Source of the DNA: Mycobacteriales bacterium
GTDB lineage: Bacteria > Actinomycetota > Actinomycetes > JAFAQI01
Assembly (NCBI GenBank): GCA_035547035.1
Contig: DASZVL010000013.1
Span: 66,503 to 130,502 of the forward strand
DNA: 64,000 nucleotides
Direction of reading: 5' to 3'
This document shows, one piece after another, positions 8,742 through 16,128 of this stretch (the first letter of the stretch is position 1; each line of letters begins with the position of its first letter). The notes below the pieces were generated by a model. The model was given only the letters and a program-made list of their open reading frames with translations. It had not been told where the DNA came from and did not search any database. Made by a program: the position numbers and the translations under genes.

Positions 8742-10196
8742 TCAGTCGCCCAGGTAGAGGAAGCCGACCGCTTCGTCTCGGAAGGGCACGCCCGCTTCCT
8801 GCAGCGGTGCGGTCCAGTCGCCGAGGCAGTCGACATCAGCGCCTTCCGACCCGTGGTCGGAGGTCAGCACGAAGGTCGTCTGGTCGAGCATGCCCATACG
8901 ATCAAGGTGGTCGAGGAAGACGCCGAGCCGCGCATCCGCGTCGCGCATCGCGGCATGGGCGACATCGGAGTGTGGGCCGCCCTCGTGGTGACCGGTGTCG
9001 GTGAGCAGCACGTTCCACCACGTGAGCGCCGGCGCCTGCGACGGCGACGCCCACTGCTCGAGCATCTGCACCAGACCGGCCGCGTCGACTGACGACGACC
9101 ACGCGTAGTCCTTGATGCCGACGAAATCTTGCGTCGTGTGCGGGTCGACCGTCGGATCGGGCAGCAGCGAGTTCATGTCGGACGCACCCCCGGAAGAGCC
9201 GGACTCGCGGATCAACCGGAACGTCGAGTACGACGCCCCCGAGTCGGCCGGCTCGTTGATGCACGCCGTCGGGCCGTCCACCCGCTCGAACGCCGTACGA
9301 ACTCCCGGCGCGAGCCACTCAGACCAGCGGTGCCAGGTGCGCGCATCGTTGGTGAGCCGCTGCACCGCCTCCGAGCGGTCGTAGTAGGCGTTGTTGACGA
9401 TGCCGTGTCTGCCGGGGCCGACACCGGTCAGAGCGCAGGTGTGGTTCACGAGCGTGACGCTGGGGAACTCCGCGATCGCGCCGCCCTGGAACGCACAGCC
9501 CTGTGTGAGCAGTCGCGCCACCGAAGGCAGCTCGCCTGCCGCGGCCAGCGCGTAGAGCGAGTTCGAGTTGCAGCCGTCCCACAGCAGACCGACCACCGGA
9601 CCGGGAGTCGGGACGAGGACGTCGACCAGCGCCTGACCTTCCATGTCGGCGAGGCCTGCGAGCGGGACGCCCGCGAGCCAAGCGAGCGTCGGCGCGACGT
9701 CAGGCACTCGTGCAGCGAGCGGGAGCATCCCGCGCGCCGTCACGGAAGGACCCGACAGCAGCAACGGCGCGCGGGACTGTACGACGTTCAACGAGCCGTG
9801 CTCGCCGCAGTGACCGCCGCGCTCCGGCCAGAAGTGCCTGCCCGTGTGCACTACCGCGATGTCGGGCGCCGCCGGTGCGGCAAACAGCGACGCAAGACGG
9901 CGACCCGCCCACGGGTAGGAGTTGCGCACGTTGGGCGGGGACAGGTCCGCGACCTCCTCGACGAGGGTCGAGTAGGCCAGTGGGTCCTGCCAGGCGACCG
10001 GGTCTCGACCGTGGATCACCTCCGCGGGCGAGTCGGGTTCGCTGCGGGAAAGTCGCGACGAGCCGTCGGAGTTCGCGACGACGATGCCGTCGCCATCGAC
10101 GTAGGCGACGAGGTCGACGACCTCGGCAAGGGATGCGTCGCAGAGCACGCCGACAGCGACGTCCCGCATCGCCAGCAGATCGGCCGTCGCGGTCAC
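8742..10196 (-). CDS. alkaline-phosphatase superfamily enzyme (nucleotide pyrophosphatase/phosphodiesterase-like)
   Basis: 484 aa; metal-site-like motif VLTSDHGSEGAD near the C-terminus typical of type I phosphodiesterase/AlkP-core enzymes. Confidence 0.6.
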   Translation of the reverse strand: MTATADLLAMRDVAVGVLCDASLAEVVDLVAYVDGDGIVVANSDGSSRLSRSEPDSPAEVIHGRDPVAWQDPLAYSTLVEEVADLSPPNVRNSYPWAGRRLASLFAAPAAPDIAVVHTGRHFWPERGGHCGEHGSLNVVQSRAPLLLSGPSVTARGMLPLAARVPDVAPTLAWLAGVPLAGLADMEGQALVDVLVPTPGPVVGLLWDGCNSNSLYALAAAGELPSVARLLTQGCAFQGGAIAEFPSVTLVNHTCALTGVGPGRHGIVNNAYYDRSEAVQRLTNDARTWHRWSEWLAPGVRTAFERVDGPTACINEPADSGASYSTFRLIRESGSSGGASDMNSLLPDPTVDPHTTQDFVGIKDYAWSSSVDAAGLVQMLEQWASPSQAPALTWWNVLLTDTGHHEGGPHSDVAHAAMRDADARLGVFLDHLDRMGMLDQTTFVLTSDHGSEGADVDCLGDWTAPLQEAGVPFRDEAVGFLYLGD

Positions 10197-10281: not shown

Positions 10282-11544
10282 ATGAGGTTCGGCTCGGCTC
10301 GGTCGCGGGTGATCGCGGTCTCGCTTGTCGGTGTCGTCGTTGCCGACATCGTCGTGGCAGCGACGTCAGACCGTGGCTCAGCTCGAGATCGATCGGCGAC
10401 CCGGAGGACACCGGCCGCGGTGACCTGTCCGAGCTCGACTGCTCCGTCCGGCCCGATCCGCAGCACGCCTTTCGAAGGTCTGCCGCCCGGCCCGACCTTG
10501 GTCGCGATGTCCGCCACCGGCCCTCATGACGTCTGGGCACTAGGCGAGCGATCGAGCGGGGGATCCTCGGACCGCGTGTTCCTCATTCACTTCGACGGCA
10601 AGACGTGGTCCGTGACGAATGGCCCAACGCTCTACCAGCCAGTCGGCATCGCCGCGCCGACTCGGCGCGACGTGTGGGTCGTCGGTGCCTCTCGGACGAT
10701 CCTTCACTGGAACGGCACGGACTGGTCGCGAATCGCACTTCCAAAGGCACGCGGCGTCCAGCTCACCTCGGTTTCCGCGTCGGCGCCGGACAACGTCTGG
10801 GTTGTCGGCCAGCGCTACGGCGTCCGACTTCCAGCCAACAGCGTCGGCAGCCATACCCTGGCATACCGCTTCGACGGTCATCGCTGGTCGATCGTGCCGA
10901 CGCCAAACCCCGACTACGCCGCCAACTCACTCACGGCTGTCATGTCGATCTCCGACACCTACACCCTGGTCGCGGGATTCGCGGGTGAGGATGGCTACAC
11001 GTTGCAATGGGACGGAGCCACGTGGCGTCAGGCGTCCCTCCCCGCTCCAGAGCACCATCTGCATGTCATCGTCGTCGGCTTGGGCATGGCCGGTACACAG
11101 CCGTGGGCGGTCGGCGCGACCGGCGGCCCGGGCTTCGGCAACCCGGTGTACCTCAAATGGACGGGCGCACTTTGGCAGCTCGTGCCGATGAAGGCGATCG
11201 ACTACAACACACCTACCGCTCAGTCTGTCTCCGGCGGTACGCCGTTCGATGTGTGGGCGGTGGGCGCAGCCAACGGCGGTCGATACGTGCTCGCCCACAC
11301 CACGAACGCACGCGCGTTCGAGTACGTCCAGCTGCCTGTCCCCGCGCAGGTGGACCCGAACGAAGGCAGCCTCAACGCCGTGCGCGCCTTCAGTCCGGAC
11401 GACGTGTGGGCGGTGGGCGTCGCAACAACGATCTCACGGTCACCGTGCGCGACGAGCTCGGGCAACCTTGCACTGGTTGACCACTGGGACGGTCACTCCT
11501 GGACGCCAGTCCACATTCCGGGACTTGCCAGCGTGCGGCCGTAA
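10282..11544 (+). CDS. secreted beta-propeller repeat protein (Ycf48/BNR-like blades)
   Basis: N-terminal hydrophobic signal; five or more repeats of blade motif [DN]VW[AV][VL]G spaced about 45-60 aa apart (HDVWALGE, RDVWVVGA, DNVWVVGQ, FDVWAVGA, DDVWAVGV). Confidence 0.6.
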   Translation: MRFGSARSRVIAVSLVGVVVADIVVAATSDRGSARDRSATRRTPAAVTCPSSTAPSGPIRSTPFEGLPPGPTLVAMSATGPHDVWALGERSSGGSSDRVFLIHFDGKTWSVTNGPTLYQPVGIAAPTRRDVWVVGASRTILHWNGTDWSRIALPKARGVQLTSVSASAPDNVWVVGQRYGVRLPANSVGSHTLAYRFDGHRWSIVPTPNPDYAANSLTAVMSISDTYTLVAGFAGEDGYTLQWDGATWRQASLPAPEHHLHVIVVGLGMAGTQPWAVGATGGPGFGNPVYLKWTGALWQLVPMKAIDYNTPTAQSVSGGTPFDVWAVGAANGGRYVLAHTTNARAFEYVQLPVPAQVDPNEGSLNAVRAFSPDDVWAVGVATTISRSPCATSSGNLALVDHWDGHSWTPVHIPGLASVRP

Positions 11545-12114
11545 TCGAGCAAGACGACGACCGGTCGAAGGCCTTCTGGCGCTACTCCCGCCAGGTCGGG
11601 AGGTCCAGCCATTCGTAGATCTTGGCCTCGGATGCGCGGGAGTCTTTGCGAGGTTCCTGACCGCAGCGTCGATCCGCATGACGCCGCTCGGCGTCGGATT
11701 GCGCAGGCTCACCACGACGCCGCGGCCGGCGTTGCTGATAGACCCGCCGCCGTGTGCCTCGACGCTCTTCCATCGCCAGACTTCTCACTTTCCACTCATC
11801 TGAGTGGGATGGAACGGCCCCGTGGAGGCGTGATCCGCGGGGCCGTTCGGTGGTAACTCATCCCTTACCAAACCGAGAGCAGCTGGACGGCTCGGCGAGC
11901 GGCTTCTGCGCGTCGTTGCCGACGACGCATGACCGCCAACCGCCGTACGTACTCCTTACGCCGGTTCTCGTCGCTGACCCGTACTCGTTCACGGGTTTGC
12001 GCTTCAACCATCAGCTCTTGCAACATCTCGAAGACTCGTTTCTCGATTGCGGGCGGCGTCTGTGTAGACGACGGCCCGGCGTGGGCTTCATCGGGAGCGA
12101 GCCGCTGCGGCGCC

Positions 12115-12372
12115 TCAGGCGGCGATCACCTCGTCCTTACGAGGACGTCCGCGTGGCCGCTTGCGCGGCACGACTACGCCCTGAACGACGAGCTGGCCAC
12201 CCCACACACCCCACGGCTCGCGTCGCTCGAGCGCCTCGCTGAGGCAGGACAGCCGGAGGGGGCAGTCCAGACACAGCGCCTTGGCGCGCTCGACGTCAGC
12301 CGGCGACTCGGCGAAGAACAAATCCGGGTCTACCAGGTGACAGGGCAGTGCACATTCGATCGCGTGGGCCAT
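12115..12372 (-). CDS. whiB7: WhiB7-like transcriptional regulator (WhiB family with AT-hook)
   Basis: Four-Cys Fe-S motif (CALPC...CLDCPLRLSC), GVWGG turn, C-terminal AT-hook RKRPRGRPRK; ATG at 12372 with SD GGAGGTGG upstream; six-frame ORF has a spurious N-terminal extension. Confidence 0.8.
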   Translation of the reverse strand: MAHAIECALPCHLVDPDLFFAESPADVERAKALCLDCPLRLSCLSEALERREPWGVWGGQLVVQGVVVPRKRPRGRPRKDEVIAA

Positions 12373-12420
12373 CTGTACCCACCTCCTTCTCTCTCGTCGG
12401 GGGAAACGCTGTTGTTTCTT

Positions 12421-12461
12421 GGCAAACAAAAAGGCCGCGGACCCTTTCGGGTGCCGCGGCC
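12421..12461 (-). terminator. intrinsic terminator/attenuator in the whiB7 5' leader
   Basis: Minus-strand hairpin GGCCGCGGCACCCGAAAGGGTCCGCGGCC followed by TTTTTGTTTGCC, lying between the uORF stop (12488) and the whiB7 SD/start (12372). Confidence 0.65.
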
Positions 12462-12487
12462 TGTGGTTCGCCGGTCGTCGTACTGGT

Positions 12488-12685
12488 TCAGACCGGATCT
12501 CCGGAGGCTCTGGCACCCCTGCCGTGCTTGCGGTTGCGCTTTGCAGCAGCGGCGTTGGGTGCGATTGCGAGCTGGTCCATCCACTGGGACATGCCGAAGA
12601 CGGCGCCAGTCGCGCACGTCGACGTCGGCGATACCCACGTGGTGGCAGGGGTCGGCGCCGACGTCGAGATCGTGTAACCGCTCAT
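12488..12685 (-). CDS. whiB7 leader uORF (65-aa leader peptide, Thr/Ser/Ala-rich)
   Basis: ATG at 12685 preceded by strong SD AAGGAGGTG with 6-nt spacing; ends 27 nt before the attenuator hairpin; sequence MSGYTISTSAPTPATTWVSPTSTCATGAVFGMSQWMDQ... Confidence 0.5.
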   Translation of the reverse strand: MSGYTISTSAPTPATTWVSPTSTCATGAVFGMSQWMDQLAIAPNAAAAKRNRKHGRGARASGDPV

Positions 12686-12751
12686 CGTGGGCACCTCCTT
12701 CTTCTGCTCGCTTCCCGGCATGACGTGGTTGTCATTTCCGGTTGTCCTCGC

Positions 12752-12800
12752 ACGATAGAGGGCGGGCCAGACACTCGCAAAGGATTTATCGAAAGATCTT
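12752..12800 (-). promoter_or_regulatory. candidate whiB7 promoter with AT-rich upstream element
   Basis: Minus strand: -35 TTGCGA (12775-12780), 17-nt spacer, -10 TATCGT (12752-12757); AT-rich GATAAATCCTT directly upstream of the -35 in an otherwise 70% GC background, a plausible AT-hook binding site. Confidence 0.45.
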
Positions 12801-12828
12801 GGTCACAAGGTGATGTCGATGGGTCTGG

Positions 12829-13707
12829 TCACACTTGTTTGGAGCCGATGACGCGCAGCAGGCCCTCTTGCACCATAGAAACCACATGCGCGCCGTCTCG
12901 CGTGAACAGCCGCCCGATGCCGAGCCCGCGCCCGCCGGACACGCTCGGCGACTGCTGGTCGTAGAGCAACCAGTCGTCGGCGCGAAACGGCCGGTGGAAC
13001 CACATCGCATGGTCCAGGCTCGCGACCATCACCTCGCGGTCGTCGTCCCAGGTGAGCCCGCCGGCGAGCAGCGCCGAGTCCAGCAAGGTGAGGTCGCTGG
13101 CGTAGGTGACCGCGCAGACGTGGATCAGCGGGTCGTCGGGCATCTCGCCGGCCGCCTTCAGCCAGACCTGCTGGCGCTGGCGGTCCTTGGTGTCGCCGTT
13201 CGGCAGCCACGGCGGGTCGTCGACGTAGCGGAGGTCGACCGGCCGCGGCCTCGACCAGTGAGGTGACTCGGGCAGGCCCAGCGCCTTCGCCCGCTCGGTC
13301 AGCGTGGGGACGGTCTCCGGGTCCGGCGCGTCGGGCATCGGCGAGGCATAGTCCGCGCCCGGCTCGTCGACCTGGAACGACGCGGAGAGGTGGAAGATCG
13401 CCTCCCCGTGCTGTACGGCGACCACGCGTCGCGTCGTGAACGATCGGCCGTCGCGGATCCGGTCTACCTGGTAGACGATCGGGATCGTCGGGTCGCCGGG
13501 CCGCAGGAAGTAGGCGTGCAGCGAGTGCACGTGCCGCTGGTCCGGCACCGTCTTGCCAGCCGCTACCAGCGCTTGTCCGGCCACCTGCCCGCCGAAGACG
13601 CGCTGCACCGTCTCGTCAGGGCTCACACCGCGAAAGATGTTCACCTCGACCTGCTCGAGCTCGAGGATCGTCAGCAGGTTCGGCAGCTCGGCGGTCACGA
13701 AGCGCAA
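12829..13707 (-). CDS. tesB: acyl-CoA thioesterase II
   Basis: 292 aa, double hotdog; N-terminus MRFVTAELPNLLTILELEQVEVNIFRG and internal GGQVAGQALVAAG characteristic of TesB. Confidence 0.8.
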   Translation of the reverse strand: MRFVTAELPNLLTILELEQVEVNIFRGVSPDETVQRVFGGQVAGQALVAAGKTVPDQRHVHSLHAYFLRPGDPTIPIVYQVDRIRDGRSFTTRRVVAVQHGEAIFHLSASFQVDEPGADYASPMPDAPDPETVPTLTERAKALGLPESPHWSRPRPVDLRYVDDPPWLPNGDTKDRQRQQVWLKAAGEMPDDPLIHVCAVTYASDLTLLDSALLAGGLTWDDDREVMVASLDHAMWFHRPFRADDWLLYDQQSPSVSGGRGLGIGRLFTRDGAHVVSMVQEGLLRVIGSKQV

Positions 13708-13774: not shown

Positions 13775-15724
13775 TTAGCCGCGGATGACTTCCAAGACTT
13801 CGTCGGCGTACTGCTCGAGCTTCTTGGGGCCGACGCCCGACACCGCAGCGAGCTCGACGCGGTCCTGCGGTGCGCGCTCGGCGATCGCGACCAGCGTCTT
13901 GTTGTCGAACACCAGGAACGCCGCGATGCCGTCGTGTTGCGCCCGCTGCAGACGCCACTCGCGCAGTCGCGCGAACAGCGGATCGTCGGGCAGCTGCTGC
14001 TTCACCGACTTCGGTCGCTCGACGTACGCCGACGCCGGGCGGATGCCGTCGAGGAACCGCGACGGCTTGCGGCTGCGGCGGCCGCCGGGCGCGCGCGCGA
14101 GCGCCCAGGACAGGCTCAGATGACGGCGGGCGCGAGTGACGCCGACGTAGAGCAGGCGGCGTTCCTCCTCGACCTGCTCGGGAGTCGACGCGTGGGTGAT
14201 CGGCAGCGTGCCGTCGACCAGCCCGACGAGGTAGACCGCGTCCCACTCGAGACCCTTCGCGGCATGCAGCGAGGCGAGTGTCACGCCCTCGACGGGGGGC
14301 GCGTGCTGCGCATCCGCGCGGGCGACCAGCTCGGCGACGAACGCCGAGAGATCTGCATCGGGACGCGCGGCGGCGACCTCTTCGGCGAGACCGACGATCG
14401 CGCGCAGCGACTCCCACGCGTCGCGAAGCGCGCCGGCCCCGCTCGGCGGCGTGTCGGAGTAGCCCATCGCGGTCAGGACGTCAGCGACGACTGCCGGCAG
14501 CGAGTCACCCTCGGTCTCTGCTTCCGGCCGGGCCGCCCCGCGCAGGCGTGTCATCGCCTCGCGGACCTCGCGTCGCTCGAAGAACCGCTCGCCGCCGCGC
14601 ACGATGTACGGGATGCCGGCGTCGGCGAGCGCGGCTTCGTAGGCCTCCGACTGCGCGTTGACCCGGAACAGCACAGCCTGCTCGCGCAGCGGCACGCCGT
14701 CGTCGCGCAGCCGCGCAACCTGCCGCGCGACAGCCACCGCCTCCGCCGGCTCGTCGTCGTACGACGCGAACGTCGGTGCCGGGCCATCGCCCGCCTGCGC
14801 GCGCAGGCGCGACTCGGGCTCGACACGGTTGGCGAGGTCGACGACCTGGTTGGTCGAGCGGTAGTCACGGACCAGCCGGACGACGGCCGCGCCCGGGAAG
14901 CGGGAGCCGAATCGACGCAGGTACTGCGGCGATGCGCCGGTGAAGGAGTAGATGGTCTGGTTCGGGTCGCCGACGACGCACAAGTCGTCGCGGTCGCCGA
15001 GCCAGGCGTCGAGCAGCCGCTGTTGCAACGGGCTGACGTCCTGATACTCGTCGACCGTGAAGTTGCGGTAGCGCTCCCGCACCTCCCCGGCGACCGCCCG
15101 GTCGTTCTCGATCGCGGCGGCGGTCAGGAGCAGCAGGTCCTCGAAGTCGAGCTGGCCGCGGTCGGCGTTGACCTGCTCGTACGCCGCGAAGACCGCCTGC
15201 ACCGTCTCGAGCTCGAACGGCGGCTCCCGACCCGCGACCCGGGCCTGCCTCGCGTAGTCGGCCGGCTCGACGAGCGCCGCTTTCGCCCACTCGACCTCGC
15301 TCGCGAGGTCCCGTTGCTGCGGGGCGGCGACCGCCAGCTTGACCGACGCCGCCGCCGCGCGGATCGACGGCAGCTTGCTCTCGATCAGCGTGGGCCGTGC
15401 GCCGGAGGAGATCCGCGGCCAGAAGTAGGTGAGCTGGCGCAGCGCCGCGGAGTGGAAGGTGCGGGCCTGTACGCCGTCGGCGCCGAGCGCGCGCAACCGC
15501 GAGCGCAGCTCCCCCGCAGCGCGGGTGGTGAAGGTCACGGCGAGGACGTGCGTCGGTTTCACCTGACCGCCGAGCACCTGGTAGGCAATGCGGTGGGTGA
15601 CCGCGCGGGTCTTGCCGGTGCCGGCGCCGGCGAGGATGCAGACCGGTCCGCGCGGTGCCGTGACGGCCTCGCGCTGCTCGTCATCGAGACCCGCGAGCAC
15701 TCGCTCGAGTGGGTCGTCAGCCAC
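13775..15724 (-). CDS. uvrD2: UvrD2-like ATP-dependent DNA helicase with C-terminal HRDC domain
   Basis: Walker A AGAGTGKTRAVTHR, UvrD motifs, C-terminal HRDC-like LREWRLQRAQHDGIAAFLVFDNKTLVAIAER...VSGVGPKKLEQY; start trimmed to GTG 15724 preceded by GGAGGAC (ORF extends to 15883). Confidence 0.8.
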   Translation of the reverse strand: MADDPLERVLAGLDDEQREAVTAPRGPVCILAGAGTGKTRAVTHRIAYQVLGGQVKPTHVLAVTFTTRAAGELRSRLRALGADGVQARTFHSAALRQLTYFWPRISSGARPTLIESKLPSIRAAAASVKLAVAAPQQRDLASEVEWAKAALVEPADYARQARVAGREPPFELETVQAVFAAYEQVNADRGQLDFEDLLLLTAAAIENDRAVAGEVRERYRNFTVDEYQDVSPLQQRLLDAWLGDRDDLCVVGDPNQTIYSFTGASPQYLRRFGSRFPGAAVVRLVRDYRSTNQVVDLANRVEPESRLRAQAGDGPAPTFASYDDEPAEAVAVARQVARLRDDGVPLREQAVLFRVNAQSEAYEAALADAGIPYIVRGGERFFERREVREAMTRLRGAARPEAETEGDSLPAVVADVLTAMGYSDTPPSGAGALRDAWESLRAIVGLAEEVAAARPDADLSAFVAELVARADAQHAPPVEGVTLASLHAAKGLEWDAVYLVGLVDGTLPITHASTPEQVEEERRLLYVGVTRARRHLSLSWALARAPGGRRSRKPSRFLDGIRPASAYVERPKSVKQQLPDDPLFARLREWRLQRAQHDGIAAFLVFDNKTLVAIAERAPQDRVELAAVSGVGPKKLEQYADEVLEVIRG

Positions 15725-15882
15725 GTCCTCCGCCCCACCCACCACCCAAATCTCGTGCCGGCTCGCCGACCCCGTCGATGGCCATCCTCGCAGCCGCCTC
15801 GGACGCCCCCGCAGGGGAACATCCACGGAGGTGGAATGGTTGTTGAGGGTGCAACGACCAGGAACCCACTGAGGAGAGCGCA

Positions 15883-16128
15883 ATGTCGGGCCGGCTGACG
15901 ATGTACAGCACCAGCTGGTGCGGGGTTTGCGTGCGCCTGAAGCGTGGGCTGGAACGCGAGGGCGTCGAGTTCGACGAGGTCAACATCGAGGAGGACCCCG
16001 AGGCCGAGAAGTTCGTCCTCGAGACGAACAACGGCATGGCCCTGGTGCCGACGGTCGTGCTGCCGAACGGCGAGGTGCTGAGCAATCCACAGCTCCCCAC
16101 CCTCCTCGAGGCTCTCAGAGCCGCGTGA
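15883..16128 (+). CDS. glutaredoxin-like protein (NrdH/mycoredoxin type)
   Basis: 81 aa with CGVC active site (YSTSWCGVCVRLK), thioredoxin fold; divergent from uvrD2 as in mycobacteria. Confidence 0.8.
   Translation: MSGRLTMYSTSWCGVCVRLKRGLEREGVEFDEVNIEEDPEAEKFVLETNNGMALVPTVVLPNGEVLSNPQLPTLLEALRAA

Follow-up and report, generated by a model that had tools for sequence, protein, structure and literature searches.

A complete copy of the whiB7 (wblC) switch, with uORF and attenuator hairpin, in an uncultured Mycobacteriales/Frankiales-like actinobacterium

As judged from its sequence, the minus-strand region that we analysed is a whiB7 (wblC) operon from an uncultured, Mycobacteriales/Frankiales-like actinobacterium. 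It holds a complete copy of a well-known actinobacterial antibiotic-stress switch, which consists of a self-activated promoter, a translated leader, an attenuator hairpin and the regulator gene. In mycobacteria and streptomycetes WhiB7 is the master control of intrinsic resistance to drugs that target the ribosome, and finding its locus here is an ordinary result. The best explanation, in which we have high confidence, is ribosome-sensing transcription attenuation of the published kind combined with WhiB7 autoactivation, the mode of control known from Mycobacterium and Streptomyces. Established for this locus are the elements in the sequence, the homology, conservation and covariation that they show, and, in silico, the alternative pairings. 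Positions (Table 1) refer to the window, the whole 64-kb stretch of DNA analysed.

Table 1. Features of the whiB7 locus and its surroundings, by position in the window
Feature	Position	Strand	Basis
uvrD2-type helicase (UvrD + HRDC)	13775..15883	-	upstream neighbour of whiB7
tesB (acyl-CoA thioesterase II), between uvrD2 and whiB7 promoter	12829..13707	-	NCBIfam, Pfam
AT-rich GATAAAT, predicted WhiB7 AT-hook site, 3 bp from -35	12784..12790	-	relatives; published WblC motif position
-35 hexamer TTGCGA	12775..12780	-	TTGC(G/A) invariant in close relatives
-10 hexamer TATCGT (TANNNT type), 17-nt spacer	12752..12757	-	invariant in all close relatives
5'-proximal stem-loop of leader, CCGG..AUGAC-N6-GUCAU..CCGG	12715..12741	-	MFE fold
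uORF Shine-Dalgarno AAGGAGGTG, 6 nt before ATG	12692..12700	-	strong SD in nearly all loci
uORF, 65 codons, ATG at 12685, TGA at 12490-12488	12488..12685	-	read in sequence; relatives
GCACCC (12562-12557), possible anti-antiterminator strand, then Ala run GCC GCU GCU GCA (codons 45-48, 12553-12542)	12542..12562	-	full-length fold
Predicted antiterminator 5' strand in last uORF codons (GGGUGCC, G, GCCU, GG)	12501..12518	-	truncated folds
Small hairpin CCGGUC...GACCGG, uORF stop UGA in loop	12471..12496	-	relatives; folds
Intrinsic terminator (attenuator), 13-bp bulged GC stem, GAAA loop, U-rich tail UUUUUGUUU	about 12462-12423	-	fold; homology
whiB7 Shine-Dalgarno AAGGAGGTG	12380..12388	-	read in sequence, relatives compared
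whiB7 CDS, 85 aa, ending ...RKRPRGRPRKDEVIAA	12115..12372	-	Pfam, orthologue alignment, structure match
53-aa Arg-rich small ORF, conserved	11865..12026	-	alignment, dN/dS, HMM
GC-rich hairpin after small ORF, without U-tract	11812..11848	-	fold

The comparison set consisted of 89 related whiB7 loci, with subsets of 81 for the hairpin, 58 for the promoter and the upstream open reading frame (uORF), and 61 sequences for RNA pairing. An earlier note on this DNA had claimed all four hallmarks of a whiB7 locus; each is present, at the place proposed or within a few bases of it, and comparison with the 89 loci shows homology to the known whiB7/wblC control region. The gene order is syntenic (mycoredoxin, uvrD2, (tesB), uORF, whiB7).

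The 85-aa product matches Pfam Whib (PF02467, E=1.2e-15) and, at residues 71-81, Pfam AT_hook (18.9 bits, cut-off 17.4), in good agreement with the earlier reading of a Wbl gene with a C-terminal RGRPRK AT-hook. Four cysteines, Cys11, Cys34, Cys37 and Cys43 (pattern C-Xn-C-X2-C-X5-C), and the AT-hook region RKRPRGRPRK (RPRGRPRK, RGRP core) are invariant in the orthologue alignment. So is EPWGVWGG (E52-P53-W54-G55-V56-W57-G58-G59), whose EPW triplet in the G(V/I)WGG turn region we take to be the WhiB7 signature for SigA contact. This segment aligns to Mycobacterium tuberculosis WhiB7 in structure 7KIF, which was also the top match among solved structures (109.5 bits, E=6.5e-31); other Wbl paralogues reached E=3e-9 or worse, the next non-WhiB7 match being WhiB in 8DY7 (40.2 bits). 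By homology, the protein is a WhiB7 orthologue of the WhiB7/WblC subfamily of Wbl Fe-S transcription factors, predicted as such to bind a [4Fe-4S] cluster and region 4 of SigA and to activate AT-rich promoters.

The promoter TTGCGA-17-TATCGT with an AT-rich element near the -35 was borne out as well, being unique in the window and conserved in relatives. The close relatives compared for the promoter (L081-L086) keep ATAAAT; an AT-rich block lies 3 nt before TTG in 46 of the 58 loci, and TTGYNN is the usual form of the -35 across loci. Over both strands of the 64-kb window, the composite pattern (AT-rich, 3 nt, TTGNNN, 16-18 nt, TANNNT) has exactly one occurrence, with 0.04 expected. In published WhiB7/WblC targets the motif lies 3 bp ahead of the -35, the spacer measures 16-19 bp and the -10 is of the TANNNT form (PMC7157823), and the geometry of the window's promoter equals theirs. 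The promoter thus contains a predicted WhiB7 site, as an autoregulated promoter would, and transcription is predicted to start near 12745. A generic sigma-70 consensus scan did not call this promoter (8/12 hexamer matches) and called none elsewhere in the region, and a generic terminator scan did not call the bulged stem of the attenuator. Since the stem is bulged and actinobacterial -35 and -10 hexamers are weak, generic consensus scanning was set aside as a test.

The leader of ~373 nt contains the uORF that had been proposed at 12685..12488 with a very strong Shine-Dalgarno sequence (SD), and reading the minus strand confirmed both. Almost all of the 58 loci, and the close relatives, have a uORF preceded by an SD. 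Lengths run from 40 to 124 codons, and in most loci the stop lies 19-33 nt ahead of the hairpin (28 nt in the window). With a dN/dS of 0.78-0.91, vs 0.07-0.19 for whiB7 and 0.15-0.39 for the small ORF downstream, the leader peptide evolves almost neutrally while the ORF persists. Conserved within the clade are the first ~10 codons (Y/H-S-T-S/P-A) and the last ones (..DPV); across clades no similarity of the leader peptide was detectable apart from short C-terminal codons, and the uORF had no match in Pfam or NCBIfam. Of the composition described earlier as Thr/Ser/Ala-rich, the Thr/Ser part is real but modest (23% vs 12% background, p=0.011; 13 of the first 30 residues), whereas Ala, at 18.5% vs 12.8% in neighbouring proteins (p=0.12; one AAAA run, codons 45-48), is the average for whiB7 uORFs. 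Ala makes up 25-40% of the uORFs in the mycobacterial loci sampled, and its enrichment has been reported as universal in mycobacteria (PMC10274678). The 5'-proximal stem-loop of the leader (TGAC..GTCA) is kept only in the window, L081, L085 and L087. We regard the uORF as the putative translated sensor of the attenuator.

Between the uORF stop and the whiB7 SD, a GC hairpin with a U-tract had been placed at 12461..12421; it is there, shifted by a few bases, and reads AGGCCGCGG(c)ACCC-GAAA-GGGUCCGCGGCCU followed by UUUUUGUUUG (dG -30.5 kcal/mol, z = -4.5). A stricter terminator criterion (6 T in 9) missed most loci, and the counts come from a motif-based search, which found a homologous hairpin ahead of whiB7 in 60 of the 81 loci. 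Across the 61 sequences pairing in the stem amounts to 89.9%, with compensatory replacement of G:C by A:U, a score that none of 500 shuffles reached. An Rfam scan of 11000-13200 matched the leader to no family, leaving no curated model to score against. The homology identifies the hairpin as the conserved actinobacterial whiB7 terminator.

Folding of the leader predicts an alternative antiterminator pairing, both here and in 49 of the 61 relatives. In truncated folds the antiterminator strand pairs with the 5' arm of the terminator (12462-12449), and the 49 loci are those in which 8 or more of the 14 arm nucleotides pair with uORF codons; the mean number paired is 9.1, vs 4.8 in shuffles. In the window's register the antiterminator helix is 60.7% paired across the 61 sequences, vs at most 49% when slid, with little clean covariation, so that the register evidently differs between clades; because the covariation in this register is only modest, the case is built on truncated folds of each sequence, controlled by shuffles. 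In folds in which the nucleotides under a ribosome were masked, a ribosome at the stop codon abolished the antiterminator, while a ribosome stalled upstream, or absent, led to antiterminator formation. In full-length RNA the terminator was always the thermodynamic winner, and the switch therefore has to be kinetic. An antiterminator that would recruit the uORF's 3' end and preclude the terminator is accordingly a prediction made in silico only. Full-length folds also pair GCACCC with GGGUGC, as such only in the window and L081, other relatives having different competing hairpins; GCACCC is thus a possible anti-antiterminator strand. The stop-codon hairpin is 68% paired in the 61 sequences, with both-sided changes at 5 of its 6 pairs.

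Translation-dependent attenuation has been published for orthologues (PMC10274678, PMC9618640, bioRxiv 2025.10.10.681568). These three reports all cite Lee, Lee and Roe 2022. By analogy with the characterised orthologues, on which we base the transcription start, the action of the terminator, autoactivation and the response to drugs and amino acids alike, the SigA-type promoter would fire at a low basal level, and the leader would present the uORF, with its strong SD, to ribosomes. When translation runs smoothly to the UGA, the lead ribosome would cover the stop-codon hairpin together with the final codons of the uORF; the 5' arm of the terminator would then be free to pair with the 3' arm, and transcription would stop in the U-tract, ~50 nt before whiB7. 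A ribosome slowed or stalled further upstream, by ribosome-targeting drugs or by a shortage of charged tRNA (e.g. in the Thr/Ser-rich first half or at the Ala run), would leave the GGGUGCC...GCCU strand (12518-12505) naked. This strand could capture the newly made 5' arm to form the antiterminator, and RNA polymerase would read on into whiB7 and the 53-aa gene. WhiB7 bound to region 4 of SigA, with its AT-hook on GATAAAT 3 bp from the -35, would then amplify its own promoter.

Could the hairpin instead terminate a uvrD2-tesB unit, with whiB7 transcribed from a separate promoter just before its own SD and without attenuation? It does lie on the tesB strand downstream of tesB, and the generic scan found no promoter anywhere in the region. 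However, it is located 366 nt past the tesB stop, beyond both a conserved promoter of the WhiB7 type and a uORF that is presumably translated; the same hairpin occupies the same place in loci without tesB; the ~35 nt from the U-tract to the whiB7 SD lack an AT-rich/TTG/TANNNT motif; and the uORF stop has a conserved position with respect to the hairpin. We therefore consider such an arrangement very improbable. That the 65-codon ORF is an ordinary gene for a small protein with a function of its own, the hairpin being just an intercistronic structure, we hold to be highly unlikely. Gene callers do annotate it as a gene in relatives and in Streptomyces coelicolor (SCO5189), its SD is very strong, and its first ~10 and last codons are conserved within the clade, but the 3' codons that are conserved coincide with RNA pairing partners, and a dN/dS far above those of whiB7 and the small ORF, a length varying from 40 to 124 codons, a peptide dissimilar across clades save for short C-terminal codons, and the lack of a Pfam or NCBIfam match all speak against such a gene.

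As to the regulator itself, every Wbl protein carries the Cys motif together with the G(V/I)WGG turn, and other WhiB structures were also matched, as would be the case for another paralogue of the WhiB1-6 type with a chance basic tail and coincidental upstream features. Against this stand the score of the WhiB7 structure (109.5 bits vs about 40 bits or less for WhiB, WhiB1, WhiB3 and WhiB4), an AT_hook match over the Pfam cut-off, the invariance of EPWGVWGG and RGRPRK among orthologues, the retained uvrD2 synteny and the homologous leader, and we give a different paralogue practically no chance. The reading we prefer remains an attenuated, autoactivated whiB7.

The region after whiB7 had been described as a structured intergenic stretch of ~570 bp. 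It holds one strong hairpin (11848-11812), but most of the stretch is the conserved 53-aa ORF, and the 88-nt spacer between whiB7 and this ORF is unstructured (z=0.02). The small ORF is under purifying selection (dN/dS 0.15-0.39), and its HMM matches only directly after whiB7 on the same strand, at ~46 of the 89 loci. It is present in Streptomyces, Kitasatospora, Frankiales, Nocardioidaceae, Kribbella, Pseudonocardiaceae and the window's clade, and the HMM did not find it in the Mycobacterium or Rhodococcus whiB7 loci sampled. Searches of Pfam and NCBIfam returned nothing for it, even at E<=10; the AlphaFold model of its Arg-rich product, which has the motif M.L..EALAR...RRxQRRAE, is a single helix (pLDDT 95). 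The ORF is probably the third cistron of the whiB7 operon and, as its position and the HMM matches in other Streptomyces genomes suggest, probably the counterpart of SCO5191. Its product might conceivably be an unstudied working partner of the WhiB7 response, e.g. a ribosome-, RNA- or WhiB7-binding modulator lost by mycobacteria, an idea we put forward tentatively and with more doubt than conviction. The hairpin that follows (z = -5.7 on both strands; an equivalent follows the small ORF in L081) is likely the operon-end, bidirectional terminator. Sub-threshold Rfam matches of this hairpin, sodF_sRNA-like on the plus strand and astrovirus frameshift-like, were dismissed as chance resemblance between GC hairpins. 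A 68-aa frame at 11788-11582 was likewise rejected as a gene, tblastn giving only Arg-rich low-complexity matches without synteny; it is non-coding or unsupported.

On the upstream side, uvrD2 precedes whiB7 in ~80 of the 89 loci. The earlier note had counted tesB as a difference in downstream gene content; it does lie between whiB7 and uvrD2, but upstream of whiB7. The insertion is common only to the window, L081-L089, L003, L004, L013 and L014, and is a clade-level variant.

That an uncultured soil lineage of Mycobacteriales has the whole switch is a further data point for an ancient and strongly conserved promoter-uORF-attenuator design, with conservation that extends to the terminator sequence; no new principle emerges from it. 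Specialists may find two by-products useful: a cross-phylum table showing, for most lineages, predicted pairing of the 5' arm of the terminator with the final uORF codons, alongside neutral drift of the leader peptide, and the 53-aa whiB7-linked gene that is missing from the mycobacterial loci sampled.

The locus resembles mycobacterial whiB7 in its protein (matching 7KIF residues 8-82), in its upstream neighbour uvrD2, in the AT-rich site abutting the -35, in an SD-led uORF with its end ~20-30 nt ahead of a homologous terminator, GGCC(G/A)CGG...CCG(C/T)GGCC with a U-tract, and in a predicted antiterminator overlapping the uORF end. It differs in having tesB between uvrD2 and the promoter, in a uORF with less Ala (18.5% vs 25-40%) and more Thr/Ser, in a terminator stem with G:C where mycobacteria have A:U, and in the 53-aa gene after whiB7, which was not detected in the Mycobacterium loci. 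The S. coelicolor wblC operon comprises SCO5189-SCO5190-SCO5191, with SCO5191 co-regulated with wblC (Lee et al. 2020, PMC7157823), and the window shares its three-cistron order of uORF, wblC/whiB7 and small hypothetical gene. Also shared are the promoter rule (motif 3 bp upstream of the -35, 17-18 bp spacer, TANNNT -10) and, with Streptomyces wblC loci, a nearly identical terminator sequence. However, the uORFs of Streptomyces, at 88-109 codons, exceed the window's in length and have the C-terminus ..MWAFRG(L/P)EPW(R/S)DPA, their antiterminator register is different, and the sampled Streptomyces loci lack tesB. With the trp, his and leu attenuators of E. coli there is no homology; what the window's leader would share is the principle that translation of a leader ORF chooses between mutually exclusive antiterminator and terminator hairpins, the possible 1:2, 2:3 and 3:4 pairings being GCACCC:GGGUGC, GGGUGCC:GGCACCC and the terminator. 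Compared with those attenuators, the window's leader is far longer and does not consist of a single regulatory codon repeated; its proposed input is general translation stress, and it would control a transcription factor instead of a biosynthetic operon.

Reading the minus strand of 11400-13000 gave the order of elements listed in the table, and the coordinates and sequences that the earlier note had assigned to promoter, uORF, hairpin and gene proved correct. Since both the promoter (8 of 12 hexamer matches) and the terminator, whose stem is bulged, escaped a scan for E. coli-like consensus elements, significance was sought by other measures. Counting both strands, the 64-kb, 69% G+C window contains a single instance of a composite promoter pattern (AT-rich block, 3 nt, TTGNNN, 16-18 nt, TANNNT), with 0.04 expected from shuffles. 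In close relatives the block ATAAAT-NNN-TTGC(G/A)-N17-TATCGT is conserved, as are the SD, the start and the last codons (GGAUCCGGUCUGA) of the uORF, the hairpin and the SD of whiB7, with variable leader between these islands. Of 58 whiB7 loci, 46 share this promoter geometry (spacer of 18 in 37 and of 17 in nine), which agrees with the published rule for promoters activated by WblC/WhiB7, in which the motif lies 3 bp before the -35, the spacer is 16-19 (17-18 optimal) and the -10 is TANNNT (PMC7157823). The proposed sigma-A-like promoter with its AT-rich element is supported.

Features of the whiB7 locus in window coordinates; promoter to whiB7 are from sequence reading
Feature	Position	Strand	Remarks
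Mycoredoxin-type glutaredoxin	15883-16128	+	divergent from uvrD2
UvrD/HRDC helicase (uvrD2)	13775-15883	minus	upstream of whiB7, same strand
tesB	12829-13707	minus	upstream of whiB7, same strand
AT-rich GATAAAT	12790-12784	minus	then CCT
-35 TTGCGA	12780-12775	minus	then 17 nt
-10 TATCGT	12757-12752	minus
Leader 5' part, ~50 nt	stem-loop 12741-12715	minus	with small stem-loop
uORF SD AAGGAGGTG	12700-12692	minus	6 nt before ATG
uORF	ATG at 12685, TGA 12490-12488	minus	65 codons, then 25 nt
Bulged hairpin AGGCCGCGG(c)ACCC-GAAA-GGGUCCGCGGCCU	12462-12423	minus	then UUUUUGUUUG
whiB7 SD AAGGAGGTG	12388-12380	minus
whiB7	12372-12115	minus	85 codons
whiB7-sORF spacer	directly after whiB7		88 nt; unstructured, z=0.02
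Arg-rich sORF	12026-11865	minus	53 aa; conserved in relatives
Strong GC hairpin GAACGGCCCCG...CGGGGCCGUUC	11848-11812	both	z=-5.7 either strand
Remainder, ~265 nt	after hairpin		only unsupported 68-aa frame
420-aa ORF	10282-11544	+
Phosphodiesterase gene	8742-10196

The stem-loop near the leader's 5' end contains a palindrome, AUGAC-N6-GUCAU. TGAC..GTCA recurs at the same place in three close metagenomic relatives (L081, L085, L087) and is absent in a fourth, L082, and in other clades. The stem-loop may act as a 5' hairpin that stabilises the mRNA, or as an operator for a protein.

Pfam Whib recognises the 85-aa product (1.2e-15), which also scores above the curated cut-off of the AT_hook model. 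Among solved structures the product matches M. tuberculosis WhiB7 best (7KIF, 6.5e-31, residues 8-82), with other Wbl paralogues at 3e-9 or worse, which bears out a whiB7-like gene with an AT-hook. Aligned with 17 database relatives, it shows no variation at the four cluster cysteines, EPWGVWGG or RKRPRGRPRK. The nearest database proteins are 96-80% identical, and wherever a name is attached the source is a metagenome-assembled 'Mycobacteriales' or 'Frankiales' genome, which places the host among the uncultured members of that group.

For comparison, species-representative genomes supplied 80 whiB7 loci and close metagenomic relatives another nine. The terminator hairpin folds alone at -30.5 kcal/mol (z = -4.5). 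Of 81 loci, 60 have its core GGCC(G/A)CGG...CCG(C/T)GGCC and T-rich tail at 80-270 nt before whiB7, among them loci of Streptomyces, Kitasatospora, Mycobacterium, Rhodococcus, Cellulosimicrobium, Nocardioides, Kribbella and Frankiales. Across 61 aligned sequences, pairing in the helix amounts to 89.9%, with a G:C to A:U double change in mycobacteria, and its covariation score was reached by none of 500 shuffles. An Rfam search of the leader matched no family. In nearly all hairpin-bearing loci a strong SD precedes a uORF of 40-124 codons that ends 19-33 nt before the hairpin (28 nt in the window). Both the uORF and the hairpin with its U-tract accordingly hold, and the leader comparison that the earlier note had proposed finds a homologous terminator in Mycobacterium, Rhodococcus and Streptomyces alike.

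The folding check suggested there likewise predicts an antiterminator. In folds stopped at the terminator loop, which represent the RNA before the 3' arm exists, the 5' arm pairs with the last uORF codons: GGGUGCC (12518-12512) with GGCACCC, G12510 with C12458 and GCCU (12508-12505) with AGGC. These pairs enclose a small hairpin, CCGGUC/GACCGG, whose loop opens with the stop codon and which shows both-sided changes at five of six pairs. Such pairing recurs in relatives from every clade, involving at least 8 of 14 arm nucleotides in 49 of 61 loci (mean 9.1, vs 4.8 with the upstream part shuffled). In the window's exact register, 60.7% of positions pair across all taxa, vs at most 49% in slid controls, which fits a structure whose register would differ between sub-clades. 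In ribosome-masked folds, a ribosome on the stop codon removes the antiterminator and leaves GGGUGC to pair instead with upstream GCACCC (12562-12557); with the ribosome at the Ala run (codons 45-48), further upstream or absent, the antiterminator forms. Once the RNA is complete, the terminator is invariably the thermodynamically favoured fold; the choice must hence be made kinetically, as in classical attenuators.

Against four close relatives, dN/dS is 0.78-0.91 for the uORF, vs 0.07-0.19 for whiB7 and 0.15-0.39 for the sORF; as expected of a translated sensor, the uORF is kept while its peptide drifts. The last codons are conserved within clades (L001-L080, the species-representative loci, e.g. 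L062 3195-3302 and L067 3283-3387), so that many lineages show ..AW(S/R)PP(V/I), Streptomyces ..EPW(R/S)DPA, Mycobacterium ..S(V)(D/N)RG.. and the window's clade ..(F/S)xDPV. Since the conserved codons fall on the strand that pairs with the terminator 5' arm, they reflect conservation of RNA, not peptide. Of the Thr/Ser/Ala richness ascribed to the leader peptide, the Thr/Ser part stands: 23%, vs 12% in neighbouring proteins (p=0.011), with 13 of the first 30 residues, a richness equalled by only 6% of other whiB7 uORFs. Ala, at 18.5%, is average for whiB7 uORFs and lower than in those of mycobacteria (25-40% in the loci sampled). Because uORF composition determines which amino-acid shortages induce whiB7 in M. 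smegmatis (PMC10274678), a bias towards Thr/Ser sensing is plausible by analogy.

The gene order does differ from M. tuberculosis through a clade-level rearrangement, but tesB lies upstream of whiB7, not downstream. A divergent mycoredoxin-uvrD2 pair next to whiB7 is conserved in most of the 89 loci. In about 80 of the 89, whiB7 has uvrD2 as its upstream neighbour, and the tesB insertion is confined to the window's clade, L003 (Frankiales), L004 and L014 (Streptosporangiaceae) and L013 (uncultured actinomycete). All available flanks of the nine close-relative loci carry mycoredoxin, uvrD2, tesB, uORF, whiB7 and a 52-53-aa ORF, followed in most by a phosphodiesterase. In the window, a 420-aa ORF with a hydrophobic N-terminus separates the phosphodiesterase gene from the whiB7 operon; it matches no Pfam or NCBIfam family, with only faint propeller-like matches, and since the closest relative, L081, lacks it at that place, it looks like an insertion in this genome.

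The 570-bp structured intergenic region that the earlier note saw after whiB7 contains one strong hairpin, but its first 88 nt are unstructured and the 53-aa sORF lies inside it. The hairpin separates the convergent sORF and the + strand ORF ending at 11544, has an equivalent after the sORF in L081 and is likely a bidirectional terminator without U-tract; in Rfam it drew only a sub-threshold sodF_sRNA-like match (31.3 bits, gathering score 46). The sORF is conserved in length and sequence under purifying selection, and a single long helix is predicted for its product (pLDDT 95). Derived from 15 copies and searched against stop-to-stop frames, an HMM matched in about 46 of 89 loci from many actinobacterial families, always directly after whiB7 and on its strand, with no match in the remainder of the window or elsewhere in ~600 kb of loci, nor in the sampled Mycobacterium, Rhodococcus or Cellulosimicrobium loci. 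Pfam and NCBIfam offer no family for the sORF, and of its 122 database relatives hardly any carries a name other than 'hypothetical'. On these patterns it looks like a real gene. Its position makes it the probable counterpart of S. coelicolor SCO5191, which follows wblC and is listed with SCO5189 and wblC as one WblC-dependent operon (PMC7157823 supplement).

The earlier note's observation is confirmed and its interpretation supported. The locus belongs to the well-characterised whiB7 switch type and keeps the known design except for lineage-specific detail, namely the tesB insertion, the Thr/Ser-rich leader and the 5' stem-loop; the whiB7-linked small protein is the only lead with some novelty. 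For orthologues in Mycobacterium and Streptomyces, experiments have established that efficient uORF translation leads to termination, and stalling to antitermination and then WhiB7 autoactivation (PMC10274678, PMC9618640 and bioRxiv 2025.10.10.681568, all citing Lee, Lee and Roe 2022). The switch in the window would operate by this mechanism.
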